From assembly GCA_937951485.1 (NCBI GenBank), contig CALEDJ010000015.1:45311-109310 (forward strand): DNA of 64,000 nt, in the 5' to 3' direction. Of this stretch, positions 3-58,420 are shown one piece after another. Each line of letters begins with the position of its first letter. Within the stretch, counting starts at the first letter, position 1. The translations under genes and the position numbers were made by a program. The stretch comes from an uncultured bacterium. Its GTDB lineage: Bacteria > Hydrogenedentota > Hydrogenedentia > Hydrogenedentales > CAILVY01. The notes under the pieces are model-generated. The model made no database searches. It saw nothing but the letters and a program-made list of their open reading frames with translations, and was not told where the DNA came from.

Positions 3-152
3 ACAGGAATGGGGTTGACCATCGTCAAGCGGATCGTCGAGGAGCACGGGGGCGCCATCGCCGTTGAGTCGGAACCGGGAAAGGGAACCGCGGTCCGTAT
101 TGCGCTGCCGGTCAGACACGGCGCGAAGCAGACAATATCCGAAGGGAAGTAG
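3..152 (+). CDS. Sensor histidine kinase, C-terminal fragment (HATPase_c G2 box region); the 5' end lies outside the window
   Basis: Frame 3 translates to TGMGLTIVKRIVEEHGGAIAVESEPGKGTAVRIALPVRHGAKQTISEGK then a TAG stop at 150-152. The motif pattern GLGLxIVKRIVExHGGxIxVES..G.GT.F...LP is the conserved end of histidine-kinase ATPase domains. Confidence 0.6.
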   Translation, partial: TGMGLTIVKRIVEEHGGAIAVESEPGKGTAVRIALPVRHGAKQTISEGK

Positions 153-195
153 CGGTCATTCCTGTACAGCAATGGGCAGAGGGGACGGGAACAGG

Positions 196-972
196 TCATG
201 CATTCTTTTCGACCTCCCGCATGATGGCGTCAAGAATGGCGCATATCTCCCGGCGTTGCGGTTCTTTGCCCGTGTATGGGGAACATCCTTCGAGGTCTGC
301 CCGGGCAATCTCCGGATCGAAGCAGATTGTGCCCAGAAGCGGCATTCCCTGCAACAGTCCGGTGAGACCGTTCAGGTCCATGCCGGGGGTAACCTTGTTA
401 ATTACGACGCCGAGGCGTGGAATGTGGATTTCCTCGGCGAGTTTGCGGATGGTGAGGGCGGTCTGGATACTTCTCAGGCCGGGTTCGGCCACGATAATCA
501 TCATGGACACCGCTTCGGCGGTGGCCCGCCCAAGGTGCTCCACGCCGGCTTCCATATCCAGGATGACCGCCTCTTGGGGCCGTAACAGTACATGAGTAAC
601 CAGGGCTTTGAGCAGCGCGCTTTCCGGGCAAATGCAGCCGCTTCCGCCCGTAGACACGCCGCCCAGCGTCAACAATTGCACACCGTGAATGATGCGCGCG
701 TACTTTTCCGGCAGATCGCGCACGTCCGGGTTAATCTTGAAATACGTGCCGTAGCCGCTTTTGGAGCCTGTCCGTTCGCGGATCAGGTCCTTCATCTGGC
801 TCAGGGGCGCCGGCATCTCCTCAGGAGGCACTCCCAACGCCGAGGCAAGATTTGCGTCTGGATCTGCGTCAATAGCGATCACCGGGCGTCCCTGGTCCGC
901 CAAGGTCCTGGCCAGCAATGCCGCCAATGTGGTTTTCCCTGTCCCCCCTTTTCCCGTGATTGCAATCTTCAT
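196..972 (-). CDS. cooC: CooC/AcsF-type Ni-insertion ATPase (CO dehydrogenase / acetyl-CoA synthase maturation factor)
   Basis: MKIAITGKGGTGKTT deviant Walker A and a CICP (CxC) metal-binding motif, about 258 aa. The start at 972 is preceded by GGAG. Divergent from acsB. Confidence 0.85.
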   Translation of the reverse strand: MKIAITGKGGTGKTTLAALLARTLADQGRPVIAIDADPDANLASALGVPPEEMPAPLSQMKDLIRERTGSKSGYGTYFKINPDVRDLPEKYARIIHGVQLLTLGGVSTGGSGCICPESALLKALVTHVLLRPQEAVILDMEAGVEHLGRATAEAVSMMIIVAEPGLRSIQTALTIRKLAEEIHIPRLGVVINKVTPGMDLNGLTGLLQGMPLLGTICFDPEIARADLEGCSPYTGKEPQRREICAILDAIMREVEKNA

Positions 973-1497
973 ATTCCCATCTCCTCTGTGGGTCTGCATT
1001 TCGCCATATATTGCGTCGGATTTTTCATCTCCCTTTTGTTGCAACATCATTGGTTCGGCATGTTATTCCGATGCGCCATTGTCACGCAACAGGATGTGCA
1101 GCATGCTCTCGTGGGTTGCGGAATTTCGCAAACTCTTGGGGATTGCCGTAACTCTAACCGAGGTATTGCATCTTCCCGCTTCCCGCAACCCCGGGCACCT
1201 GAGATTCCCCAGCATGGAGAAGATACGTTCTATCAGCGTCGGCATTGACCCTTCGACGATTGGAACGATTTTTTCGGCAGCCCGCCAGCAAAACGCGCCA
1301 TAGGCACAGGACTTGCTTGAATCCAAGGGAGCGGCAGAAACGTGTTTTATCTGCCTGTATTGTAGTTTTCCGGCCAGGTCAGACAGTGGCTGCAGGCATG
1401 CTTGTGGCTTGTCGAAGAAGGGCGGCATGAGGCAGAAACAACCGGCATTCGCGTCCACAGGACGAAGCGATCGCATTCAACGGGAGATTTGGGTTCT

Positions 1498-3678
1498 ATG
1501 AGTCGAAAAGTGATTGCAGCGGCGATTCGGGGTGCGCAGTCCTTTGTTGCCAGAGCGGAAAGCGAGGTGCGCACCGCCCTGGAGACCCGAGGGTCGGAAC
1601 AGCGTGTGGGTTTTCCCGGAACGGCCTTTTATCTTCCCATGGCGTATGCGCTCATGGGCATAGAAGCGCAGACAGTGGGTGACCTGCAGCTGATTGCGCG
1701 GCATTGCCGGGAACTGGTTGGCGAAGAACCTCCGGCTCGGCTATGGCTGCCCTACCTGGGGCGGGGGCTGGACAGCGGCGTTGCCACCCTGCTTGCCCAA
1801 GAAGTTATCTGCGCCTTGCGTTACCTCAGAAACGAACCCATCGAGCAGGACCATACCGGTTTCATTTCCGACACAATTCTGCGGGAGTTGGGCATTCAGT
1901 TGGTGGATGGCCGCATGCCTGGTTTTGCGGCGATTTTGGGGCCCGCCCCCACCAACGACATTGCCGTCAAAGCCGTCAGACAGTTGCAGCAGCGCAACAT
2001 CCTGTCGTTTCTCCTGTGCAACCGGGATGGCCGTTCCCTGTACGACCAACTCGTCGAGGAAGGCGTCGAGATGGGATGGAATACTTACATTGTTCCGGTG
2101 GGCCGGGATACGGAATCCGCCATTTATGTGCTGGATTGGGCGATTCGCGGCGCCCTGACGTTCGGGGGGCACAAGAAGGGGGATTTCAGGGCCTGTCTGC
2201 GCTATTGCCGCGAGCGCATCTTCGCGTTCGGCATCACCTTCGGCCCGATTCCCGACGAATGGTATGCCGTTGGCGCGGGGGCCATCGTCATGGGGTTTCC
2301 CGTGATTTCGGATGATGCCACAACGCCGGAGATTCGCCCCACGGGGGTAACCACGTACGAGGAACTGGTCCGGGAAACGGACCATGAGAAGTTAATTGCG
2401 CGCGCCATCGAAGTGCGAGGGGTGAAGGTGAAGGTGGAGACCATGGACATTCCCGTGGCGTATGCGGCGGCCTTCGAGGGCGAACGCGTGCGCCGCGAAG
2501 ACATGCACACCCAGTTCGGCGGCAAATACTCGAAGGCGGTGGAATTCCTGCGCATGCGCGATGCCAAAGACATCGAGGACGGGCGGGTGACCGTCATCGG
2601 TCCCGACCTGGACGCGACAGACGCCAGGACTTCGTTGGACCTGGGGATTCTGATCGAGGTGGCTGGGCGCAAAATGCGCCCGGACTTCGAGGGCATTCTG
2701 GAACGCCAGATGCATCGCTACCTGAACCATGCCATGGGCGTCATGCACATTGCCCAGCGCGATCAACTCTGGCTGCGCATCAGCAAGGATGCATTCAAAG
2801 CGGGTTTCCGGCTGAAGCATCTCGGGAATATTCTCCACGCCAAACTACTGGGGGAATATGGCGGGATAGTGGACCGCGTCCAAGTGACCATCTATACGGA
2901 GTCGGAGGCGGTGGAAAAACTGCTTGCAGAGGCTACCGCCGCCTTTGACGCCCGTGATGACCGGGTGCGGGGCATGATGGACGAATCGGTGGACACCTTC
3001 TATTCCTGCACGATCTGTCAATCCTACGCCCCCAATCACGTTTGCGTCATCACGCCGGAACGGTTGGGCCTGTGCGGCGCATATAACTGGCTTGACGGGC
3101 AGGCTGCCTACGAGATCAATCCTGTCGGCCCCAATCAACCCATCAAGAAAGGACGCGTTGTCAATGAGTCCTTGGGCGAATGGCAGGGTGTGAACGAATT
3201 TGTGTATGCGCACTCGAATCATGCGACGGAACGCTTCTCCGCGTATTCGCTCATGCAGAACCCGATGACATCGTGCGGATGCTTCGAAGTGATTGTCGCC
3301 ATCGTTCCAGAGTGCAATGGAGTGATTGCCGTAAACCGCGAATACCAGGGGGACACCCCCATCGGCATGCAGTTCAGCACCTTGGCCGGGTCGGTCGGCG
3401 GGGGGGCGCAGACGCCCGGCTTCGTGGGAGTGGGCCGCATGTACCTGGCGTCACGGAAATTCATCGCCGCGGAGGGCGGCCTCAAGCGCCTGGTCTGGAT
3501 GCCCAAGGACCTCAAGGAAGCCATGCGCGCATATCTGGCCGACCGCGCGCAGGAAATGGGACTGAACGGGTTCGTGGACAAGATCGCGGACGAAACCATC
3601 ACCACCGAAAGCGATGGGCTGTTGGCGCATCTTGAACGGGTGGAACACCCCGCGTTAACGATGGAACCGCTTATTTGA
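1498..3678 (+). CDS. acsB: Acetyl-CoA synthase catalytic subunit AcsB (CODH/ACS alpha, A-cluster subunit)
   Basis: C-terminal domain carries CTICQSYAPNHVCVITPE and the Cys-Gly-Cys A-cluster motif (TSCGCFE), about 726 aa. A GGGAGA RBS precedes the ATG at 1498. The upstream extension in the ORF track is non-coding. Confidence 0.9.
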   Translation: MSRKVIAAAIRGAQSFVARAESEVRTALETRGSEQRVGFPGTAFYLPMAYALMGIEAQTVGDLQLIARHCRELVGEEPPARLWLPYLGRGLDSGVATLLAQEVICALRYLRNEPIEQDHTGFISDTILRELGIQLVDGRMPGFAAILGPAPTNDIAVKAVRQLQQRNILSFLLCNRDGRSLYDQLVEEGVEMGWNTYIVPVGRDTESAIYVLDWAIRGALTFGGHKKGDFRACLRYCRERIFAFGITFGPIPDEWYAVGAGAIVMGFPVISDDATTPEIRPTGVTTYEELVRETDHEKLIARAIEVRGVKVKVETMDIPVAYAAAFEGERVRREDMHTQFGGKYSKAVEFLRMRDAKDIEDGRVTVIGPDLDATDARTSLDLGILIEVAGRKMRPDFEGILERQMHRYLNHAMGVMHIAQRDQLWLRISKDAFKAGFRLKHLGNILHAKLLGEYGGIVDRVQVTIYTESEAVEKLLAEATAAFDARDDRVRGMMDESVDTFYSCTICQSYAPNHVCVITPERLGLCGAYNWLDGQAAYEINPVGPNQPIKKGRVVNESLGEWQGVNEFVYAHSNHATERFSAYSLMQNPMTSCGCFEVIVAIVPECNGVIAVNREYQGDTPIGMQFSTLAGSVGGGAQTPGFVGVGRMYLASRKFIAAEGGLKRLVWMPKDLKEAMRAYLADRAQEMGLNGFVDKIADETITTESDGLLAHLERVEHPALTMEPLI

Positions 3679-3723
3679 TCATCATGCGCCGGCAATGGCC
3701 GGCTGATAAGGAGTACATGCGTT

Positions 3724-5067
3724 ATGGCACTCTCAGGACTTGAGATATACAAGAGCCTGCCGAAGGAAAACTGCAAAGAATGCGGCTTGCCGACTTGCCT
3801 TGCCTTTGCCATGAAGGTTGCTGCGGGGCAAGCCCCGCTCGAGAATTGTCCGCGCCTGGAACCGGGCGCGGCCGCGGCGCTCAGCGAGGCCAGTGCGCCG
3901 CCGCAACAACTGGTGAAGGTCGGTGTGGGCGACCAGGCATTTGAAATCGGCCGGGAAACAGTCCTGTACCGGCATGAGGACAAATTCCACCATCCCGCCG
4001 CGATTGGCGTTTGCGTGGATGATACGGCCGAGATTGCTGCAATCAAGGAGAAAAGCCGCGCAGTGGCGGCCATCGCCTTCGACAGGATGGGCAAAGTGTC
4101 CAAAATAGACCTGATAGCGGTCCGTCATTTGTCGGGTGATGTCGAGCGATTCGCGTTGGCGGCAAAAGCCGCGGCGGATGCGGCCGGAAGGCCGGTTGCG
4201 CTGATGGCGTCCGACCCCAACGCTTTGCGCGCGGCCGGCGGCGCATTGGCGGCCCAACGTCCGCTCTTGTGGGCCATGAACGCCCAGGCCGACATTGACG
4301 GATACATCGCCACAGCCAAGGAACTGGGTCTTCCCTTGTGCATTCAAGGCAGAGATTTTGAAGAAATATCCGCCTTGTCCGAAAAGGCTCGGGCGGCAGG
4401 TCTGAAAGAACTCATCCTCGCGCCCGAGTGCGCCACGGAAACAGACGGGCTTGCTTTCCTGACCCAAAGCCGCCGGGCGGCTATATCCAGGAAGTATCGC
4501 CCCTTGGGATATCCGGTGGCCATGACGGCGATCAACGGAAATCCTGTTCAGGCGACGGTGGCCGCCTGCTGGTACATATTGAAGTATGCCGGGATTGTGG
4601 TGACCAATGTATCCGACCCAGCCTACCTTCTGGCCATGGCGGCGTCGCGCCAGGATATCTACACCGACCCGCAGGTGCCGGTGCAGGTGAAGCCGGGAGT
4701 GCATCCCGTTGGCGACCCCGGCCCCGACGCGCCCGTGCTGGTGACCACCAATTTCGCACTGTCCTACTATTCCGTTGAATCGGAAATCACCGCCGCACGG
4801 ATACCGGCCCACATCATCGCCGTGGACACGGAAGGCACCAGCGTACTCACGGCGTGGGCTGCGGAAAAACTTACGCCGGCGTCGGTGGCGCAGACGCTGT
4901 CGGCCAGCAATCTGGACCGGCAGGTCAACCACAAGAAGATGATCATTCCCGGGCTGGTGGCCGTGCTCAGCGGCGGTATCAAGGAAGAATCCGGATGGGA
5001 TGTCATGGTGGGACCCCGCGAGGCATCCGGCATCGTGCCCTATCTCAAGAAACAATGGAGCGGATGA
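3724..5067 (+). CDS. acsC: Corrinoid iron-sulfur protein large subunit AcsC
   Basis: N-terminal LEIYKSLPKENCKECGLPTCLAFAMK [4Fe-4S] motif, TIM-barrel and C-terminal B12-binding regions, 447 aa. AAGGAG RBS. Confidence 0.85.
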   Translation: MALSGLEIYKSLPKENCKECGLPTCLAFAMKVAAGQAPLENCPRLEPGAAAALSEASAPPQQLVKVGVGDQAFEIGRETVLYRHEDKFHHPAAIGVCVDDTAEIAAIKEKSRAVAAIAFDRMGKVSKIDLIAVRHLSGDVERFALAAKAAADAAGRPVALMASDPNALRAAGGALAAQRPLLWAMNAQADIDGYIATAKELGLPLCIQGRDFEEISALSEKARAAGLKELILAPECATETDGLAFLTQSRRAAISRKYRPLGYPVAMTAINGNPVQATVAACWYILKYAGIVVTNVSDPAYLLAMAASRQDIYTDPQVPVQVKPGVHPVGDPGPDAPVLVTTNFALSYYSVESEITAARIPAHIIAVDTEGTSVLTAWAAEKLTPASVAQTLSASNLDRQVNHKKMIIPGLVAVLSGGIKEESGWDVMVGPREASGIVPYLKKQWSG

Positions 5068-5070
5068 ACC

Positions 5071-7002
5071 ATGGGCCCTTCACGCGCGAAGAAATCTTGT
5101 ACTATCCACTTTTTGCCCGGTGATGTTTCCGTGGAGGTGCCGGTTGGCACAACCATCCTGGACGCGGCGCGCGCCGCGGGCGTATTTGTCGAGAATCTCT
5201 GCGGAGGCGACGGGGTGTGCGGCAAATGCCGCGTTATTGTGCGCCGCGGTCTTGTCGGCGGTGCCGCCACAGGTTCGCTTACGCGCGAACAAATCCGGGA
5301 GGGGTACATCCTGGCCTGTGAAGCGCGGGCCGAGGGAAATGTCATCATCGAGGTGCCCACTGAATCCCAGTTGCGCGGAAAAGTCCGCAGCGCGGACGGT
5401 TCCGAACTGGGGATTCGCGAGCGGGATTACCTGGCCAGGACGCCGGAACGGCTGCACCCCCTGGTCCGGAAATACGCTCTGAAACCCGCCCCCCCGACCC
5501 TTGAGAACTGCCTGTCGGACCTGTCGCGGCTGAAGCAGAAACTTCAAGAGGTGGATGACGCCGCGGAATATCAGATGGGGCTGAAGATAATCCGCATGCT
5601 GCCGCACGTCCTTCGCGGACATGACGGCGTCGTTACGGCCACGGTGGCCCACCGCGGCGCATTGGCGGAAATCACGGACATTGTCGCCGGCGACAGCAGC
5701 GTGCCCAATCTTGCCGTGGCCGTGGATGTGGGCACGACCTCGATTGTTGCGCAACTCGTCGAGTTGGCCAGCGGCCAGACGCTGGGCACTTCGGCCAAGT
5801 ACAACTCGCAGGCGGTCTATGGTTCGGACATATTGCGGCGCATCATCTGGGCGACAGAGCACCCCAACGGCCTCGAGCAAATGCACAGCATGGTGGTGGA
5901 CGACATCAACATCCTTATCCAGGAACTCCTGGACGCAAGCCGGCTGAGCCAGAACTACATTACGTTTCTGGTTGCCGCGGGCAACACGACCATTATGCAC
6001 ACCTTGCTCGGCGTGACCCCGCAGTGGATACGACGTGAGCCATATGTCGGTGTGACCTATCACCCCCCGGCCTTGCGCGCCGCAGAACTGGGAATCACCA
6101 TCAATCCACGCGGGCTGGTCTATTGCATGCCCTGCGTGAGCGCCTTTGTGGGCGCGGATATCACGGCCGGGGTGCTGGCGGTGGGCATGCATCAGGCGGC
6201 GCGCCCCAAGATGCTGATAGACATCGGTACGAACGGCGAGATTGTCATCGGCAACCGCGACTGGATGGTGTGTGCGAGCGCATCCGCGGGGCCTGCCTTC
6301 GAGGGCGCAGGAACGCACGACGGCATGCGCGCCACCACCGGCGCCATAGATCATATCCGAGGATGGAGTGCGGGCCAGAACCTTACCTTTTCCACCATCG
6401 GGGGGGAGCCGCCGCGCGGCTTGTGCGGGACGGCTTTTGTTGATTTGCTTGCCCACCTGCTGCGTCTTGGTATCATGGACAAGACGGGAAAACTGGTCCG
6501 AAACCATCCCAGTTCCAGGGTTCGCGAGAACGGCGACGGCATGTTGGAATTTCTGGTGGTCGGCGCGGGCGAGCGCGGCGCGCCGCGCGATCTGGTCATT
6601 ACCCAAGACGATATCGAGAATCTGGTGCGCACCAAAGCGGCTGTTTACGCCGCGTCACAGGTGCTGCTGCGCGCACTGGGGCTGCAGATGGCAGATATTG
6701 AGGAGATCTATGTTGCGGGCGCTTTCGGCAATTACCTGGACTTGGAAAATGCGGTGCGCATCGGATTGCTGCCCGATGTCCCGGCGCAGAAGATGCGGTT
6801 TGCGGGCAACACCAGCCTGTTGGGTGCAAGAATGGCCGCCCTGAACAGACAGAACTATTTGGACGTGCAGAAGATCGCCAATTCGATGACGTATTTTGAA
6901 CTCAGCACGGAGCCGTCTTTCATGGAGTCTTTTCAATCCGCCTGCTTCTTCCCGCACACCAATATCGAGGAATTTCCTTCGGTCATGGCATTGGTGTCGT
7001 GA
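5071..7002 (+). CDS. acsV: Corrinoid activation/regeneration protein (RACo-type reductive activator of CoFeSP): 2Fe-2S ferredoxin domain plus ASKHA ATPase
   Basis: N-terminal plant-type ferredoxin cysteines (CGGDGVCGKC) followed by an ASKHA fold (DVGTTSIVAQL...GTNGEIVIG), 643 aa. Position between acsC and acsE is typical. Confidence 0.8.
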   Translation: MGPSRAKKSCTIHFLPGDVSVEVPVGTTILDAARAAGVFVENLCGGDGVCGKCRVIVRRGLVGGAATGSLTREQIREGYILACEARAEGNVIIEVPTESQLRGKVRSADGSELGIRERDYLARTPERLHPLVRKYALKPAPPTLENCLSDLSRLKQKLQEVDDAAEYQMGLKIIRMLPHVLRGHDGVVTATVAHRGALAEITDIVAGDSSVPNLAVAVDVGTTSIVAQLVELASGQTLGTSAKYNSQAVYGSDILRRIIWATEHPNGLEQMHSMVVDDINILIQELLDASRLSQNYITFLVAAGNTTIMHTLLGVTPQWIRREPYVGVTYHPPALRAAELGITINPRGLVYCMPCVSAFVGADITAGVLAVGMHQAARPKMLIDIGTNGEIVIGNRDWMVCASASAGPAFEGAGTHDGMRATTGAIDHIRGWSAGQNLTFSTIGGEPPRGLCGTAFVDLLAHLLRLGIMDKTGKLVRNHPSSRVRENGDGMLEFLVVGAGERGAPRDLVITQDDIENLVRTKAAVYAASQVLLRALGLQMADIEEIYVAGAFGNYLDLENAVRIGLLPDVPAQKMRFAGNTSLLGARMAALNRQNYLDVQKIANSMTYFELSTEPSFMESFQSACFFPHTNIEEFPSVMALVS

Positions 7003-7099
7003 ACGTGGCCGGCGCCTGGCGCGCCTGGCCGCTCGAGCGCGGCGGCGGTAAGGCTGCGGGGCGGTGAGCAAAATCAACCGTGGCGAGTGGAGATATCTT

Positions 7100-7930
7100 A
7101 TGTACATTATCGGCGAACGGATCAACGGGATGTTCAAGCGCGTACGCGCGGCCATCGAAGAGCAGAACAAGAGCGTTATCCAGGAGTTGGTGCGCGCGCA
7201 ACTGGAGGGCGCGGCCAATGCCCTGGACGTCAATGTAGGTCCGGCCCAGGTTGATCCGCTTGAGGCGATGCATTGGCTGATAGATACCATCAGGGAGGTG
7301 AGTGATGTCACCCTCTGTATTGACAATCCGAAATATGAGATTCAAAAGGAGGTCATTCCACGCTTGGGGCCGCGCGCCATCATCAACTCCTCGAAAGCCG
7401 ATGAGGAGGCGCTGGAGAAGTTCGTGGCGCTGGCCGCCGAGAACGACGCCAGGCTGATCGCCCTGACCATTGACAAGAAAGGAGTCCCCGCGGACGTGGA
7501 GCGGCGCGTCGAACTCGGCGCATTTATTGTCGTGAAGGCCATGGAAGGGGGGCTGCCGATGGACCATCTCTACATTGATCCCATCATTCTGCCGGTCAAT
7601 GTCGCCCCGAAGCAGCCCCAGTTTGTCCTGGAGGCGTTGCGGCAACTGAGGATACTGAGCGACACGCCGCCCCATCTCAACCTCGGCCTCTCGAATCTTT
7701 CCCAGGGATGTGCGAACCGCCCGCTGATTAACCGCTCCTATCTGGTAATGGCCGTCCTGGCCGGGTTGGATGCGGCCATAATGGATCCCCTGGACAAAGA
7801 CCTTGTGGACGCCATGATTACGGCCGAATTGCTTACGGAAAAGATGATCTATTGTGATTCATATCTCGAAGCCTACCGCATGACCAACTGCGTCGGCGTC
7901 CAGGACCGCATGGGTTGCATGAGGAGATGA
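7100..7930 (+). CDS. acsE: Methyltetrahydrofolate:corrinoid/iron-sulfur protein methyltransferase AcsE (pterin-binding domain)
   Basis: MYIIGERINGMF N-terminus typical of MeTr/AcsE and a pterin-binding TIM barrel. GGAG RBS before the ATG at 7100. Confidence 0.85.
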   Translation: MYIIGERINGMFKRVRAAIEEQNKSVIQELVRAQLEGAANALDVNVGPAQVDPLEAMHWLIDTIREVSDVTLCIDNPKYEIQKEVIPRLGPRAIINSSKADEEALEKFVALAAENDARLIALTIDKKGVPADVERRVELGAFIVVKAMEGGLPMDHLYIDPIILPVNVAPKQPQFVLEALRQLRILSDTPPHLNLGLSNLSQGCANRPLINRSYLVMAVLAGLDAAIMDPLDKDLVDAMITAELLTEKMIYCDSYLEAYRMTNCVGVQDRMGCMRR

Positions 7931-36047: not shown

Positions 36048-36695
36048 GAAAATCTCATTCGAGACTTTCGTGATTGGGTCTTTTTCCGGGCGGCGTGCCG
36101 CCCGGGCGTCCAGGCAAGCCTGGACGCATGAAAGCGGTGGCAAGCCGGCGCAGTGCAAAAAAGCGTTACCCCCTCGTGACACCGCTCCCGCGCTGTCACA
36201 TAACAGCGAAGAAAAACACGGAACCTGACACAGGAAAATGCGAATGTTTCTGATCATCGTGCGCATAAACGCCGCCCTCGGGCGTTTTTGGGCGCACCCG
36301 GCAACAGGGAGCAGCGGCGGGAATCATCAGGCGATCATCGCAATGTCAATGATGCATGATCTTTGCCGCCGCCTTCCCACGAAGGCGCGCGCCACCTCGA
36401 GTTACACACTGACGGCACGACACGCGCCGCCCCCATCGGCAGGTCTTCGGACTTGCGGGCACACCGCGCGATCGCGTCTCTCGACGCGCCGCCCGGCACT
36501 CTACTGGACGCCGCTTCCCAGCCTCCGGGGTGGAGGCCAGTGCTTCGTGGCGCCGTTCGTTCCCGCTTACCGCTGCGGGGCAGTTCCGGACTTCCACCGG
36601 ATTCCCTCTTAGCCGGAAACGCCAGGCATGCGTTCCCGGGCCGATAGTGATTTCAGTATAGGCCATCGCGAGTGAAAAAGCAATCGCTGCCGGAT

Positions 36696-41330: not shown

Positions 41331-41407
41331 TGGCGCGCCTGGTGCGACTCGAACGCACTACCTACGGCTTAGAAGGCCGTTGCTCTATCCGGATGAGCTA
41401 CAGGCGC
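41331..41407 (-). tRNA. tRNA-Arg (anticodon TCT) with encoded CCA
   Basis: Reverse complement folds as GCGCCTG-TA-GCTC-ATCCGGATA-GAGC-A-ACGGC-CTTCTAA-GCCGT-AGGTA-GTGCG-TTCGAGT-CGCAC-CAGGCGC-G-CCA. All four stems are perfect, with a 7-nt anticodon loop and a TTCGAGT T-loop. Confidence 0.85.
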
Positions 41408-53735: not shown

Positions 53736-55154
53736 ATGCGACACCGGCGGATATCACGGAGAAATTGGATGCAGGGCATGGCCGGGATGATGGCCGGGAT
53801 GATGGCCGGGACGGCGCTGAGCCGCGCCGGCGGGGAAGAAAATCCTGGGCAAAGACCGAACCTGCTGATTGTCCTTACGGATGACCAGCATTTCCAGGCG
53901 ATGGGCTGCATGGGCAACCCGATCATCCAGACGCCGCAGATGGATGCGCTCGCGGCGCAAGGGGCGCTGTTCGCAAACGCCTTTGTGACCACGCCGATCT
54001 GCTGCACAAGCCGCGCCAGCATCCTCACGGGCATGTACGCCTGGAGCAACGGCGTCCACGATTTTCAGACGCCCCTTCCCCCGGACCTCCTCGAAATCAG
54101 TTATCCCGTGATGCTGCGGCGGCACGGGTATTACACCGGCTTTGTTGGCAAGTACGGCGTGGGGACAACGCCGCCGGCAGATGCCTTTGATTTCTTTTTC
54201 GGACTTCCCGGAAATGGACGCTATATCCAGGAGATCAACGGCGAGACGCAGCACATGACCGGCCTGCTTGCCGACCAGGCCGTTGCATTCCTGGAATCTT
54301 GTCCCGATAACGCGCCGTTCTGTCTGTCGCTGAGCACGCGTGCGCCCCACGCCGAGGACTACGACCCGCGCCCCTTCCCGCCGGACCCCGCCTTGGAACA
54401 TCTCTACTGCGATGTCGAAATCCCCGCGCCTGAACTGGTGAAACCGGAGTATTACGAGGCGCTGCCGCCGTTTCTCAAGGATTCCGAGGGCCGCAAGCGC
54501 TGGGAGAACAATTTCAACACGCCGGAACGCTATCAGGAGTCGGTGCGGGATTATTACCGGATGATCACCGGCGTGGACCATGCCATCGGCCGCCTCCGGG
54601 AAGTCCTGCGCCGGCGCGGCATGGACCACAACACCGTCATTCTTTTCACTTCCGACAACGGTTTCCTTCTCGGCGAGCGCGGCCTGTCCGACAAATGGTA
54701 CGCCTACGAGTCCTCCATCCGTGTGCCGTTCATTCTCTATGATCCCCGGCTGCCTGAAGCGCAACGGGGGCGGCGCGTCGAGGCCATGGCGCTGAACATT
54801 GACATCGCGCCGACCCTCCTCGACCTCGCGGGGATCGAAGCGCCGTCCGCAATGCAGGGGCGGAGCCTTTTGCCCTGGCTGCGCGGTGAAACGCCCCCCT
54901 GGCGGGAACACTGGTTCTTCGAGCACCGCTTCGACAGCCCCCACCACAAGATTCCGATGAGCGAGGGCGTGCGCAGCCCCCGCTGGAAGTATTTCCGGTG
55001 GATCAACGTCGAAGGAACCCCGGAAGAACTCTACGACCTGGAACAGGACCCGCTCGAAATCCGCAATCTCGCGGGAAATCCCGATTCCGCGGCCACCCTC
55101 GCCGAAATGCGCCTCTTGACGGAAGCATACCGGGAAACGCTGCCGAAGCGGTGA
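53736..55154 (+). CDS. Sulfatase (formylglycine-type, alkaline-phosphatase superfamily) with twin-arginine signal
   Basis: Tat-like MRHRRISRRNWMQGMAGMMAG. NLLIVLTDDQH and the active-site region TTPICCTSRASILTGMYAW (C-C-T-S-R variant of C-x-P-x-R). GGAGGG RBS. Confidence 0.85.
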   Translation: MRHRRISRRNWMQGMAGMMAGMMAGTALSRAGGEENPGQRPNLLIVLTDDQHFQAMGCMGNPIIQTPQMDALAAQGALFANAFVTTPICCTSRASILTGMYAWSNGVHDFQTPLPPDLLEISYPVMLRRHGYYTGFVGKYGVGTTPPADAFDFFFGLPGNGRYIQEINGETQHMTGLLADQAVAFLESCPDNAPFCLSLSTRAPHAEDYDPRPFPPDPALEHLYCDVEIPAPELVKPEYYEALPPFLKDSEGRKRWENNFNTPERYQESVRDYYRMITGVDHAIGRLREVLRRRGMDHNTVILFTSDNGFLLGERGLSDKWYAYESSIRVPFILYDPRLPEAQRGRRVEAMALNIDIAPTLLDLAGIEAPSAMQGRSLLPWLRGETPPWREHWFFEHRFDSPHHKIPMSEGVRSPRWKYFRWINVEGTPEELYDLEQDPLEIRNLAGNPDSAATLAEMRLLTEAYRETLPKR

Positions 55155-55158
55155 AAAT

Positions 55159-55320
55159 GTCGGACAAGTCGGACAAGTCGGACAGGTCGGACGGGTCGGA
55201 CGGGTCGGACGGGTCGGACGGGTCGGACGGGTCGGACGGGTCGGACGAGTCGGACGGGTCGGACGGGTCGGACGGGTCGGACGGGTCGGACGGGTCGGAC
55301 GGGTCGGACGAGTCGGACGG
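55159..55320 (+). repeat. Tandem array of 18 x 9-bp repeats, GTCGGAC(A/G)(A/G), with a palindromic GTCSGAC core
   Basis: Read directly: gtcggacaa gtcggacaa gtcggacag gtcggacgg (x many) gtcggacga ... It starts 5 nt after the sulfatase stop. Confidence 0.85.
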
Positions 55321-55449
55321 GGGAGAGTGGTCGGAAAGGGGCATTTTGAGCCTTTGGAATTGTTGTGGTCTGTTGCCATAGATGGCGAGAACCACGTATA
55401 TTGGCATTATGAGAATCACGACACCTGCCGCGGATGGGGAGCATAGCCC

Positions 55450-56202
55450 ATGAATGATCCAAAGGGGCCATTACTGCCGCACGGAGGATATCGGTCTCTA
55501 AAGAGTTATAAAGTGGCGGAAGCGATCTATGACGCGACCGTGGTGTTCTGCCGCCGATTCTTCCAGCAAGATCGCCGCATGACGGAGCAAATGGTTCAAG
55601 CCGCACGAAGCGGTGTGCGCAATATCAGCGAAGGAAGCGGCGCGTCAGCCACTTCCCGCAAGACGGAAATGAAACTGACCAACGTGGCCCGCGCCAGCCT
55701 GGCGGATGAATTGCTGCGGGATTATGAAAGTTTCCTCGTGCAGAGAGGGCTGCGTATCTGGCCGAAAGAATCGCGTGAGGCCCGTTTGATGCGCGACCGT
55801 TTGGCCAAAGATCAAGCCGATGACTTGCCACCTATTTCTGATGGAACCACCCGATTGACTGGTCTTTCCGGTTTGTCCGATTTTGTGTCCGAAGCAGACC
55901 CTGAAATCGTGGCCAATGCGATGATATGCGCGATTCACCAAGCCGTTTATCTGTTGAGCCGGCAACTGAAGAGTCAAGGTGAAGCGTTCCTGTCCGCGGG
56001 CGGGTTTTCAGAGAATCTCTATCATTCCCGGCAGCAAGCCCGCGAAGAAAATCACAGTGCGCCCGAATGCCCCGTCTGTGGCAAGCCCATGCGGCAACGC
56101 ACCGCAAGCAAAGGACCACACAAAGGGGAATCATTCTGGGGTTGCAGCGCTTATCCTGCCTGTACCGGCACGCGCTCCATGGACATAGAAAACCGCCGTT
56201 GA
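55450..56202 (+). CDS. Four-helix-bundle protein (TIGR02436 / 23S-rRNA-IVS / Avd-like family) fused to a C-terminal topoisomerase-type C4 zinc ribbon
   Basis: N-terminal motifs YKVAEAIYDATVVFCRRF...QMVQAARSGVRNISEGSGASATSRKTEMKLTNVARASLADELLRDYE match the four-helix-bundle family. C-terminal CPVCGKPMRQRTASKGPHKGESFWGCSAYPACTGTR matches zf-C4_Topoisom. GGGGAG RBS. Confidence 0.65.
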   Translation: MNDPKGPLLPHGGYRSLKSYKVAEAIYDATVVFCRRFFQQDRRMTEQMVQAARSGVRNISEGSGASATSRKTEMKLTNVARASLADELLRDYESFLVQRGLRIWPKESREARLMRDRLAKDQADDLPPISDGTTRLTGLSGLSDFVSEADPEIVANAMICAIHQAVYLLSRQLKSQGEAFLSAGGFSENLYHSRQQAREENHSAPECPVCGKPMRQRTASKGPHKGESFWGCSAYPACTGTRSMDIENRR

Positions 56203-56224
56203 TCCCTGCCATTCCCCTCCCCGT

Positions 56225-56368
56225 TTGTCCGCCCTGTCCGCCCCGTCCGCCCCGTCCGCCCTGTCCCACTCGTCCGACCTGTCCGACTGATCCGACTGGT
56301 CCGACCTGTCCGACTCGTCCGACTGGTCCGACTGGTCCGACTGGTCCGACTGGTCCGACTCGTCCGAC
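56225..56368 (-). repeat. Second tandem array (16 x 9 bp) of the same repeat in inverted orientation, (N)GTCCGAC(N)
   Basis: tgtccgccc..cgtccgacc tgtccgact ggtccgact (x5) cgtccgacc is the reverse complement of the 55159-55320 array. Together they bracket the 55450-56202 gene. Confidence 0.8.
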
Positions 56369-56443
56369 CCAGCACGTTCCTTCCCCCTCAAATTGACATC
56401 TGCGTCCGCTCTGGTGATACTCCCCCACAGGAGGAGGAAAACC

Positions 56444-58420
56444 ATGCCCGAAAAAAGGGTCAATCGCCGAAATTTCTTCCGGGACGCCGCCAACGCGGGT
56501 GCGTTGGCCGGCTACACGTTGCTGGTGCGGGTGGACGGCGCGCGCGGGGGGGAATCTTCCGGCGCGCCGCGTCCCGATTTTCAGCAGATCGCGCCCCCGG
56601 CGGACCATGCCGCGCGGCTGGCCGCGGAACCGAACATGACGGTGGCGGACCTTGCGTGCGATGTCATGGTCGCGGGCGGAGGCATGGCGGGGGTGTGCGC
56701 GGCGCTGGCGGCGGCGCGCCATGGGGCGAGGGTGGTGCTGGCGCAGGACCGTTCCCGTCTCGGCGGCAACGCAAGCAGCGAGGTCCGCATGCACATTGTC
56801 GGCGCAGACTGCCATAACGGGCGGCCCGGCTGGCGGGAAGGCGGCATCCTGGAGGAGTTGCGCCTGGAGAATGCGGTCCGCAATCCGCACGGCGCGTGGG
56901 AACTCTGGGACCTGATGCTCTACGACAAGGTGGTTTCGGAACCCAATATCACGCTGCTGCTCGATGCCACGGTCTATGCCGCGAAGGTCGGGGACGGTTG
57001 CATCCGGGAAGTGCTGGCGCGCTGCGACCGCACTGAACACATTTACCGCATCCGCGCCGCGCAGTACGCGGACTGCACCGGCGACAGCCGGCTCGGACTG
57101 GAAGCGGGGGCGCTGTTCCGCACCGGCCACGAATCGCGGGCGGCATTCGATGAACCCCTCGCGCCGGAGACGGAAGGACCGGAAACGCTGGGCAGCAGCA
57201 TTCTTTTCACCTCGAAGGACTACGGTCATCCGGTACCCTTTACGCCGCCGCCATGGGCGCGCAAAATTACCAAAGAGCAGTTGCGGCACCGCGGCATCCG
57301 TTCGTGGGAATACGGCTACTGGTGGATCGAGTGGGGCGGGATGATTGACGCGATCCGGGACGATGCGCGCATCCGCTTTGAATTGCTGTCCATTGTAATG
57401 GGCGTATGGGATTACATCAAGAACTCCGGCGCGTTTCCGGAAAGCGCCACCTGGGGGATGGATTGGGTCGGCATGATTCCGGGGCGGCGCTCAAGCCGCC
57501 GCCTGATTGGCCCGTACCTCCTCACGCAGCAGGATTTGATGGGACTGAACGGCGAATTCGAGGACGCCGTGGCCATCGGCGGCTGGTCTTTTGACGATCA
57601 CCCGCCCGGCGGTTTCGACGCGACGGAGAAGCCCCCGTGCCGACAGATCCATATTGAAGAACCCTATAACATCCCGTTGCGCGCGCTGTTCTCCGCGAAC
57701 GTGAAAAACCTGTTCATGGCCGGGCGCAACATCAGCGCATCGCACGTCGCGTTCACGTCGTTGCGGGTGATGGGTACCTGTGCCGTCGAAGGGCAGGCCA
57801 TCGGCACTGCGGCGGCGCTCTGCGCGCGGGAGGAAAAAACCCCGGAGGCATTGGTCGCGGACAGCGGGGCCGTCGCCGCCCTGCGGCAAGCCCTCCTGCG
57901 CGACGACCAGACCATCAAGGGCGCAAAGAATGAGGACCCGAACGACCTGGCGCGCCGCGCGCGCGCAAGCGCTTCGGGCGAAGTGAAAGGGAGCCGGGCG
58001 GCGCATGTGCTCGACGGTTTTGTGCGCGATATGCCGGGGGAGTGGGAGCATCGCTGGGGCGGCCCCATGACGCCGGAGGGGGCATGGATTGCGTTGGAAT
58101 GGGATGCGCCGCAGACCATTTCACACGTACAGATTTGTTTTGATTCCGGATTCAGCCGGGAGTTGACGCTTTCGGAAAACCAGTGGGTGCGCACGCGCAT
58201 CACCACCGGTCCGCAACCCGAAACGGTACGCGACTACGCGCTCCAGTATTGGGATGACAACCACGGCGATTGGAAAACCATTGTTGAAATCGCCGGCAAT
58301 TATCAACGGCTGCGACGGCACCATTTTCCGGCTGTCGAGACGAAGAAACTGCGACTGCAGATCACCGCAACCAACGGCGATCCCGAAGCGCGGGTCTATG
58401 AGATTCGGTGCTATGCGTAG
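56444..58420 (+). CDS. FAD-dependent oxidoreductase (pfam12831-like) with Tat signal and C-terminal discoidin/F5-8-C-like domain
   Basis: RRNFFRDAANAGALAGYTLL twin-arginine motif. DVMVAGGGMAGVCAALAAARHGARVVLAQDRSRLGGN dinucleotide-binding fold. AGGAGGAGG RBS. Confidence 0.7.
   Translation: MPEKRVNRRNFFRDAANAGALAGYTLLVRVDGARGGESSGAPRPDFQQIAPPADHAARLAAEPNMTVADLACDVMVAGGGMAGVCAALAAARHGARVVLAQDRSRLGGNASSEVRMHIVGADCHNGRPGWREGGILEELRLENAVRNPHGAWELWDLMLYDKVVSEPNITLLLDATVYAAKVGDGCIREVLARCDRTEHIYRIRAAQYADCTGDSRLGLEAGALFRTGHESRAAFDEPLAPETEGPETLGSSILFTSKDYGHPVPFTPPPWARKITKEQLRHRGIRSWEYGYWWIEWGGMIDAIRDDARIRFELLSIVMGVWDYIKNSGAFPESATWGMDWVGMIPGRRSSRRLIGPYLLTQQDLMGLNGEFEDAVAIGGWSFDDHPPGGFDATEKPPCRQIHIEEPYNIPLRALFSANVKNLFMAGRNISASHVAFTSLRVMGTCAVEGQAIGTAAALCAREEKTPEALVADSGAVAALRQALLRDDQTIKGAKNEDPNDLARRARASASGEVKGSRAAHVLDGFVRDMPGEWEHRWGGPMTPEGAWIALEWDAPQTISHVQICFDSGFSRELTLSENQWVRTRITTGPQPETVRDYALQYWDDNHGDWKTIVEIAGNYQRLRRHHFPAVETKKLRLQITATNGDPEARVYEIRCYA

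Follow-up and report, generated by a model that had tools for sequence, protein, structure and literature searches.

Four-helix-bundle proteins of the intervening sequence (IVS)/S23 type are among the commonest unexplained small genes in bacterial genomes, and, to our knowledge, no member of the fold has a known role except Avd, which is encoded in diversity-generating retroelements (DGRs). Here we describe a gene of this kind in a 64,000-nucleotide stretch (the window) of contig CALEDJ010000015.1 from an uncultured Hydrogenedentota bacterium, where it lies, enclosed by two arrays of a 9-bp tandem repeat (arrays A and B), between a sulfatase gene and a gene for a FAD-dependent oxidoreductase. 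Comparison with related loci showed the gene and its arrays to be a foreign, horizontally spreading cassette, with array ends under sequence-level constraint and with a flipped orientation in one relative. On balance, we lean towards reading positions 55155-56443 as a foreign single-gene cassette of about 1.3 kb in the sulfatase/oxidoreductase spacer, the array ends of which serve as recombination substrates and probably as binding sites.

The closest described systems are the IVS of 23S rRNA. In Coxiella and Leptospira, these are selfish, horizontally transferred elements with an S23p/four-helix open reading frame (ORF) and terminal inverted repeats that are cut by RNase III (PMC4990558). Like them, the cassette is a small selfish insertion of sporadic and horizontal occurrence, with a single ORF of the PF05635/TIGR02436 superfamily, no recombinase of its own and terminal repeats able to pair. 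A 23S rRNA IVS, however, sits in helix 9, 25 or 45 of the 23S rRNA, whereas the cassette lies between protein-coding genes, and no rRNA was found in the window at Rfam gathering thresholds; membership is ruled out by this location. The ends differ as well, being one unique inverted repeat in the 23S rRNA IVS and tandem 9-bp arrays, usually direct in the family, in the cassette. A terminal inverted-repeat stem around the four-helix ORF was predicted in the window (-282 kcal/mol), but the arrays of the family are mostly direct. Additionally, the cassette protein, unlike that of a 23S rRNA IVS, carries a 'suffix' region and a Zn ribbon.

Repetitive extragenic palindromic (REP/REPIN) sequences and the REP-associated tyrosine transposases (RAYTs) offer a second comparison. 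RAYTs are HUH Y1 transposases. Much as seems to hold for the cassette, a short palindromic repeat is dispersed between genes, often just after stop codons, and about one gene copy per genome is flanked by its cognate repeat; the cassette gene was so flanked in 77 loci of a family sample of 80 genomic loci, each from a different assembly. Array dispersal was seen in metagenome contigs, plus 0.024 arrays per kb in the flanks of gene-bearing loci. The two systems differ in their proteins (an HUH transposase versus an Avd-fold bundle without a known catalytic motif), in their repeats (hairpins of ~35 bp versus tandem 9-mers) and in the behaviour of the gene, which is vertically kept for RAYT but horizontally mobile for the cassette. 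Membership in REP/RAYT was ruled out, as there is no HUH protein.

Avd itself shares the fold of the cassette protein, but no reverse transcriptase lies within ~10 kb of the cassette and no template/variable repeat pair was seen; the 9-mer arrays were the only repeats that Tandem Repeats Finder detected at the locus, and the lack of a reverse transcriptase rules out DGR membership. Plasmid partition or regulatory sites such as those of ParR/parC and the heptads of the omega repressor resemble the arrays in having contiguous short units that are tolerated in either orientation beside the gene for a putative binder. The cassette arrays, in contrast, also occur in coding sequence, after the gene and as solo copies, and there is no ParA-type partner at the cassette. 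Integron cassettes, too, are mostly promoter-less single genes that follow a co-oriented gene and have imperfectly palindromic recombination sites at their borders, but the present cassette lacks an integrase, an attI/attC architecture and a cassette array. With no recombinase within 10 kb, both an integron cassette and an invertase switch were ruled out. A clustered regularly interspaced short palindromic repeat (CRISPR) array was likewise rejected, as the units are contiguous 9-mers with two variable bases between 7-bp cores and not repeats of 23-50 bp with spacers. Altogether, the cassette fits no described class of mobile element and is best filed as an IVS-like selfish four-helix-bundle cassette with tandem-array ends. 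In the literature searched, neither the association with arrays nor this protein subfamily was described.

Insertion site and horizontal spread

The first-pass annotation of the window had taken the locus for a self-contained cassette, a view that was supported by two groups of relatives. These were the only informative ones (L293-L296, empty, and L287, flipped) when the contexts of sulfatase and oxidoreductase homologues were searched for orthologous sites. In L293-L296, 45 bp separate the sulfatase gene from the co-oriented oxidoreductase gene, and neither an array nor a cassette is present; identity to the window is 69% at the amino acid level for the oxidoreductase and 48% for the sulfatase. 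Homologues of the oxidoreductase are 69-71% identical and mostly labelled Hydrogenedentes, and the 45-bp spacer of L293-L296 has no recognisable similarity to the 74-nt spacer that separates array B from the oxidoreductase gene in the window.

The closest homologue of the cassette protein, with 82% amino acid identity, is encoded in L287. Here the flank, comprising the sulfatase and permease genes, matches the window at 87% nucleotide identity on one strand, whereas the leader, gene and trailer of the cassette match at 76.5% on the opposite strand, the cassette having diverged more than its flank. Arrays are present at both junctions, and an array begins 4 nt past the sulfatase stop codon in L287 and in the window alike. 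Judging from these alignments, the cassette is flipped at the same host site in L287, which may reflect either an inversion between inverted arrays or a replacement or re-insertion at the arrays; when the spacer types of the arrays are compared between the window and L287, the inverted arrays make these two events look alike. Both assemblies of the window strain (the window and L288, an independent short-read assembly) show one orientation. The empty site in L293-L296 and the opposite orientation in L287 show the cassette to be a self-contained, inserted element.

The cassette gene has a GC content of 54-58%, compared with 60-70% in its flanks. The surrounding 20 kb are devoted to glycan utilisation, with genes for a GH94 enzyme, a solute symporter, ABC permeases, a sulfatase and an FG-GAP/GH123 protein. 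Pfam searches of ten flanking ORFs (45.5-53.6 kb and 58.4-64 kb) detected no integrase, transposase or reverse transcriptase within ~10 kb, and in a scan of 42 ORFs of the window a reverse transcriptase was not among 25 of the 77 matched families. The statement of the first-pass annotation that an integrase and a reverse transcriptase are missing here thus held for this distance, as did its remark that no CRISPR-like spacers are present.

The 80 loci of the family sample came from Verrucomicrobiota, Lentisphaerota, Kiritimatiellota, Planctomycetota, Acidobacteriota, Hydrogenedentota and Desulfobacterota. Mean protein identity was 73.3% within phyla and 72.8% between phyla, as labelled in metagenome-assembled genomes (MAGs) whose taxon labels may be imperfect, and for 28 of 62 loci the nearest neighbour belonged to another phylum, with up to 90-94% identity. 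The equality of the within-phylum and between-phylum values points to horizontal spread. Four MAGs (L008, L009, L014 and L024) were labelled Bifidobacterium or Bifidobacteriaceae; the proteins of their cassettes have 65-67% identity to the query, as do those of the Planctomycetes-Verrucomicrobia-Chlamydiae (PVC) loci ranked around them among the matches, and the labels of these co-assembly bins look doubtful.

Genomic contexts were mostly unique among the 80 loci. In about ten of them (L003, L006, L019 at about 85-7902, L033, L037, L039, L045, L047, L058 and L080), the cassette and its arrays occupy the hsdS-hsdR junction of a type I restriction-modification operon and share its orientation; in L019, the hsdS ORF crosses the upstream array as a Ser-Asp tail and ends in an overlap with the cassette start. 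More generally, among the 52 loci that have an upstream array, 36 have a long ORF of the same orientation ahead of the cassette, with its stop codon 1-37 nt short of the array, within it or beyond it; in the last case, the ORF overlaps the cassette start. The typical cassette is therefore a promoter-less downstream cistron.

Encoded protein and its repeat arrays

Profile searches identified a four-helix bundle and a Zn ribbon in the cassette protein and no other domain. The first-pass annotation had recognised an Avd/23S-IVS-like bundle fused to a topoisomerase-type ribbon, and its assignment agreed with matches above the curated cut-offs for TIGR04258 (4helix_suffix, four helix bundle suffix domain; 64.8 bits, cut-off 40), TIGR02436 (four helix bundle protein; 29.5 bits, cut-off 24) and PF01396 (topoisomerase C4 Zn ribbon; residues 206-244, 34.1 bits, cut-off 32). 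The match to PF05635 (26.0 bits) was under its cut-off of 33.8. Cysteines 207, 210, 232 and 238 were invariant across 21 sequences. A structure model built from 21 homologues (predicted local distance difference test score, pLDDT, 81) placed the four bundle helices as listed in Table 1, with an additional predicted helix at residues 185-203 and a predicted three-stranded ribbon at residues 213-243. The fold is an up-down four-helix bundle as in 2GSC, 2RLD and Avd, and its structural matches included the S23/IVS protein and Avd (chains A-E of 2GSC; chains A, B, D and E of 2RLD). The ribbon gave weak matches to Topo III-alpha and to the GRF fingers of NEIL3.

More than 7,400 proteins matched the query. 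The best 120 were all 59-82% identical to it, many of them on contigs of 1-2 kb, and clustering at 50% gave a tight family of 159 clusters at E<=1e-30. To describe the repeats of this family, we use the 9-bp unit GTC-N-GAC-NN, in tandem form (GTCNGACNN)n, and call an array where at least three units run in succession adjoining or inside the gene. Arrays adjoined or entered the gene at three positions in the 77 loci: before the start codon (UP, 51 of 80), in the linker that joins the suffix region to the Zn ribbon (MID, 32) and after the last conserved residue (DN, 60). UP arrays end 16-45 nt ahead of the start and DN arrays begin 0-25 nt past the last conserved residue. The phase of the arrays to the reading frame is conserved, and a typical array has 4-5 units, with a range of 3 to 19 across loci. 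Array density was 1.23 per kb within 400 nt of the gene, about 50-fold above the value for the remaining 452 kb. In three loci of a more distant subfamily (L093, L110 and L166), the array lies instead within the insert at residues 99-150. These distributions showed that the arrays travel with the gene and occupy its every permissive boundary, whether before the start, in the linker or loop, or after the end.

Such arrays thus recur with the gene family, but they do not always flank four-helix-bundle genes. Runs of five units are common in metagenomes, where at least 120 loci matched, and the gene was present in 12 of the 120 sampled; 108 (~90%) carried a solo array. The ORFs beside solo arrays were mutually unrelated (PrmA, OmpH, SAICAR synthetase, ribosomal protein S9, NADH dehydrogenase chain 6 and YbaB), and some hosts of solo arrays are AT-rich though the unit is GC-rich. 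The arrays are a dispersed intergenic repeat, and the cassette gene is its single most frequent neighbour; its 10% share would be about 200 times what chance predicts for one gene among thousands. When all fetched loci were searched with iterated profiles for other four-helix-bundle genes, only the cassette family was found. Viral contigs gave 86 matches to the array pattern, none with the gene; some viral and metagenome matches (L203, L091, L098 and others) were rejected as collagen-like Gly-Pro-Thr repeats (GGTCCGACN) of unrelated source.

The Zn ribbon is a candidate for the array-binding determinant of the protein. Three loci (L070, L076 and L077) encode no ribbon and keep arrays on both sides, so the ribbon is dispensable for the association between gene and array and cannot be the only array-binding determinant.

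Some arrays touch genes other than the cassette or duplicated parts of it. In L036 (989-1040 and 3911-3980), L059 (673-733) and L071 (6-57), they occur at a large CheB/CheR-like sensor protein upstream of the cassette, at its N-terminal and C-terminal ends, and can accordingly bracket a neighbouring host gene too. In L093 (1503-2387), a gene fragment (residues 83-124) with an array at its end occurs as a duplicate immediately ahead of the full copy; the full copy has an array at the same internal position, and the 60 nt before both arrays are almost identical. In sequence this duplication looks like the result of unequal recombination between arrays. Solo arrays often have further short tandem repeats next to them (L190, L193, L178, L198, L189, L108, L110, L191 and L200). 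The units of these repeats include GGAGTCA, GGAATGC and CCAGTCNG-like motifs, and in L198 GGATGCA units stand on both sides of the solo array in inverted orientation. Genomes with solo arrays seem to hold several families of intergenic short-repeat arrays.

Within the unit, six core positions are kept, and the centre N and the two spacer bases are near-uniform in composition. Translated arrays are almost always in the frame NNG-TCN-GAC, which encodes x-Ser-Asp (31 of 32 linker arrays and 43 of 62 downstream arrays), and upstream arrays use the same frame relative to the upstream ORF that overlaps the start. In relatives, the cassette ORF continues into the downstream array as an x-Ser-Asp tail in 37 of 62 cases, and upstream ORFs often run into arrays as such tails, which misleads annotation. 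Codon usage was examined in repeats selected at the peptide level (periodic x-S-D), independently of the DNA motif. Serine was encoded by TCN in 281 of 281 instances, compared with 36% TCN (64% AGY) in the rest of the same genes; aspartate was GAC in 277 of 281, compared with 55% in the rest of the genes; and the preceding codon ended in G in 274 of 281. This bias shows that the constraint is on the bases G-TCN-GAC and not on a Ser-Asp peptide. The arrays are thus nucleic-acid elements and not peptide repeats.

The centre base varies within most arrays, which leaves them without a defined polarity. When the flanking arrays of a locus were compared, the direct sense fitted better than the inverted one at 30 loci versus 12 (Wilcoxon p=0.001). 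Agreement of centre bases within a locus was 0.366 in the direct sense, compared with 0.263 +/- 0.023 after permutation (p<0.0002), and was under chance in the inverted sense (p=0.004). The inverted arrangement described for the locus is thus not a feature of the family, and the all-G versus all-C inverted arrangement of the window is atypical. It may have arisen through the recent expansion of two different units, one with a G centre and the other with the complementary C, which would have produced the 144-nt inverted repeat. The palindromic nature of the unit lets any two arrays pair imperfectly as RNA, and even 'direct' pairs gave predicted pairing energies of -25 to -100 kcal/mol.

Two samples (L109, 5560-5960, and L167, 1083-1483) contain the same solo array. 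Seven of its 24 variable (N) positions differ, compared with 2 of 48 core positions and ~4.6% of flank positions, which suggests that, in this single pair, the variable positions turn over faster than the surrounding intergenic DNA. Two other readings of the unit were rejected. CsrA-type GGA sites do not fit, as the centre can be any of the four bases, and the N positions are not attributed to a GTCAGACAA template mutagenised at adenines in DGR style, as the A at unit position 6 is conserved and there is no reverse transcriptase.

Proposed mechanism and competing explanations

If the arrays are the ends of the element, recombination from array to array would insert, excise, flip and reshuffle the cassette, either through host homologous recombination or with assistance from the encoded protein, a predicted multimeric Avd-like nucleic-acid binder that would recognise GTCNGAC units. 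For a factor that binds or synapses the arrays, the obvious candidate is the Avd-fold protein. A cassette excised between its direct arrays would leave one solo array in its place, and a circle carrying one array could integrate into any solo array to yield a cassette with direct flanking arrays; a partial duplication such as that in L093 would be an expected by-product. Most members have no promoter and ride as the downstream cistron of a co-oriented host gene; the lineage of the window has gained the 128-nt leader with a putative promoter of its own, which would free expression from dependence on orientation.

Several observations weigh against this mechanism. Neither the cassette nor its vicinity encodes a recombinase, transposase or reverse transcriptase, and the array binding assigned to its protein is a prediction. 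The longest perfect identity between A and B is ~16-17 bp, with 82% overall, which makes the pair a poor RecA substrate. A pattern scan found no solo array in the other 62 kb of the window, and the 80 loci from 80 assemblies gave no sign of multi-copy proliferation within a genome, although MAGs often lose repeats. The difference between the window and L287 could represent re-insertion instead of inversion. Finally, the empty-site relative (48% and 69% amino acid identity) is too distant to fix whether the array came first or arrived together with the gene.

A possible, if tentative, extension is that GTCNGAC arrays and an Avd-fold protein that is neither an HUH transposase nor a recombinase constitute a new system of repeats and associated protein, in which the protein seeds, spreads or mobilises arrays, preferentially in cis. 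Such action in cis would be the reason why arrays stand at every permissive position in and around the protein's own gene. With the same reserve, gene and arrays would propagate themselves across phyla and leave solo arrays behind, much as in REP/RAYT but with a different protein.

The pairing of the arrays has suggested to us an explanation at the level of RNA, which we think unlikely: as in the Coxiella and Leptospira IVS (PMC4990558), paired arrays would loop out the cassette RNA and RNase III would cut the stem, so that the cassette is tolerated in operons. The strength of the predicted A:B duplex (-282 kcal/mol; when the whole 1289-nt cassette is folded at minimum energy, 130 of the 163 bases of array A pair with array B), the pairing retained even by 'direct' arrays (-25 to -100 kcal/mol) and the usual position of cassettes within strings of co-oriented genes, where the arrays are transcribed, are all consistent with it. 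However, flanking arrays in the family are direct with mismatched centres, and it is the GTC..GAC sequence itself that is kept and not pairing with covariation. Cutting would extend to arrays in the coding linker, a solo array lacks anything to pair with, and Rfam gave no matches. The first-pass annotation had also considered an invertible module; as a programmed switch, it would have the inverted arrays as its recombination sites, and a flip would redirect the internal promoter and alter expression of the sulfatase and oxidoreductase genes. We give this little credence. Opposite cassette orientations do occur at one site in two relatives, the window has the 144-nt inverted repeat, and promoter-like sites are found inside the cassette and after it, but the flip was seen only between species-level relatives ~13% diverged, both assemblies of the window strain share one orientation, the inverted arrangement is the exception in the family, and no invertase is encoded nearby.

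Two further explanations dispense with mobility altogether or with function. Short arrays of dyad-symmetric units immediately ahead of a start codon, typically of 4-5 units, together with a Zn ribbon of DNA-binding type, would suit a resident regulator whose arrays are iteron-like autoregulatory operators, comparable to ParR/parC or the omega-repressor heptads. That reading is very unlikely in view of the empty site and flipped orientation in relatives and of between-phylum similarity equal to that within phyla; moreover, arrays are found past the gene and within the coding linker too, 90% of them are elsewhere beside unrelated genes, and variants without the Zn ribbon keep them. It is similarly improbable that the arrays are a functionless microsatellite, accumulating around the gene as slippage-prone repeats or acidic Ser-Asp tails. 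Copy number is indeed unstable (7 versus 18 units between two assemblies, and 3 to 19 across loci), and arrays are often translated as x-S-D tails, but codon usage places the constraint on G-TCN-GAC and not on the peptide, saturation at N and NN has left the core intact, the GC-rich unit is also present in AT-rich genomes, and the 50 times higher density near the gene than in the flanks holds across phyla.

With these findings, a compact subfamily of four-helix-bundle proteins gains a concrete partner, a sequence-defined 9-bp repeat that accompanies the gene across phyla. They suggest that rRNA intervening sequences are a special case of a wider group of recombinase-less selfish cassettes inside host transcription units. 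Should the protein recognise or mobilise the arrays, this would amount to a new mechanism of gene mobility and repeat dispersal and would explain the siting inside type I restriction-modification operons. From a practical standpoint, the arrays break short-read assemblies, and many homologues are found on contigs of 1-2 kb.

Layout of the window

The features of the cassette and its flanks are collected in Table 1.

Table 1. Positions of the cassette, its parts and the flanking genes in the window.
Feature	Position	Strand	Basis or remark
Sulfatase gene, left flank (PF00884 and SGSH_C)	53769-55154	+	ORF list; Pfam on the L288 and L287 genes; outside the element, marks the insertion point
Array A, leader-side end: 18 GTCGGAC-NN units, all with G centre, spacer mostly GG	55159-55321	+	Tandem Repeats Finder, pattern scan
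Leader, 128 nt, from array A to the start codon	55322-55449	+	sigma-70-like promoter match inside
Cassette gene, 250 aa	55450-56202	+	modelled helices at residues 19-37, 42-62, 70-98 and 151-182; variable insert at 99-150
'Suffix' region, residues 151-198	55900-56043	+	
C4 Zn ribbon, residues 205-243	56062-56178	+	
Trailer, 23 nt, from the stop codon to array B	56203-56225	+	sequence
Array B, trailer-side end: 16 units, GTCGGAC-NN on the - strand, NN-GTCCGAC on the + strand	56226-56369	-	Tandem Repeats Finder, pattern scan
Spacer, 74 nt, from array B to the oxidoreductase start	56370-56443	+	second sigma-70-like match inside
FAD-dependent oxidoreductase gene, right flank	56444-58420	+	outside the element; directly follows the sulfatase gene in relatives

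The two arrays had been described in the first-pass annotation as 18 and 16 units that bracket exactly one gene and are mutually complementary, and both descriptions were borne out. Array A consists of 18 units of GTCGGACNN and array B of 16 units of its reverse complement. Tandem Repeats Finder reported period 9 for each, with 18.1 copies, 96% matches and consensus GTCGGACGG for A and with 16.0 copies and consensus TGTCCGACC for B. A scan with the two-unit pattern GTCGGACNNGTCGGAC, allowing at most one mismatch, gave 28 matches in the window compared with 0.05 expected, all of them inside the arrays, with 17 + strand matches in A and 11 - strand matches in B. In array B, the 4-5 units nearest the gene have degenerated (GTCCGCC, GTCCCAC). 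Array A compared with the reverse complement of B matched at 118 of 144 ungapped positions (82%). The stop codon of the sulfatase gene is TGA at 55152-55154, and array B ends 75 nt upstream of the ATG of the oxidoreductase gene. In L288, which has the same sequence, the layout is identical, but array A has 7 units and the contig breaks inside array B; the L287 and L288 assemblies both terminate within an array, and the exact unit count is assembly-dependent. The Logan run ERR9287890 contains this sequence too.

That the arrays might be coding parts of neighbouring genes was ruled out in the window, where the sulfatase aligns to within 3 residues of its stop codon and the twin-arginine-type leader of the oxidoreductase starts after array B. 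The possibility does apply to relatives, in which codon usage marks a constraint at the DNA level.

A promoter scan returned two sigma-70-like sites compared with 0.4 expected, each matching at 10 of 12 positions. One lies in the leader at 55373-55402 (TTGCCA, 18 nt, TATATT), and the leader of L287 has the same hexamer spacing (TTGTCA, 18 nt, TATATT). The long leader is common to the window and L287, most family members having only 16-45 nt there. The other, near-consensus site is at 56393-56421, directly after array B (TTGACA, 17 nt, GATACT), and could restore expression of the oxidoreductase gene if the insertion severed it from its operon.

Rfam searches, at permissive thresholds on the locus and at gathering thresholds on the window, returned nothing relevant to the cassette. 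Elsewhere in the window, the N-terminal leader of the sulfatase contains a perfect 12-bp tandem repeat at 53778-53811 (ATGGCCGGGATG x 2.8), which encodes MAGMMAGMMAG. A cobalamin riboswitch (36421-36660, - strand, 97 bits) and a tRNA-Arg(TCT) gene (41331-41407, - strand), both unrelated to the cassette, were also identified.

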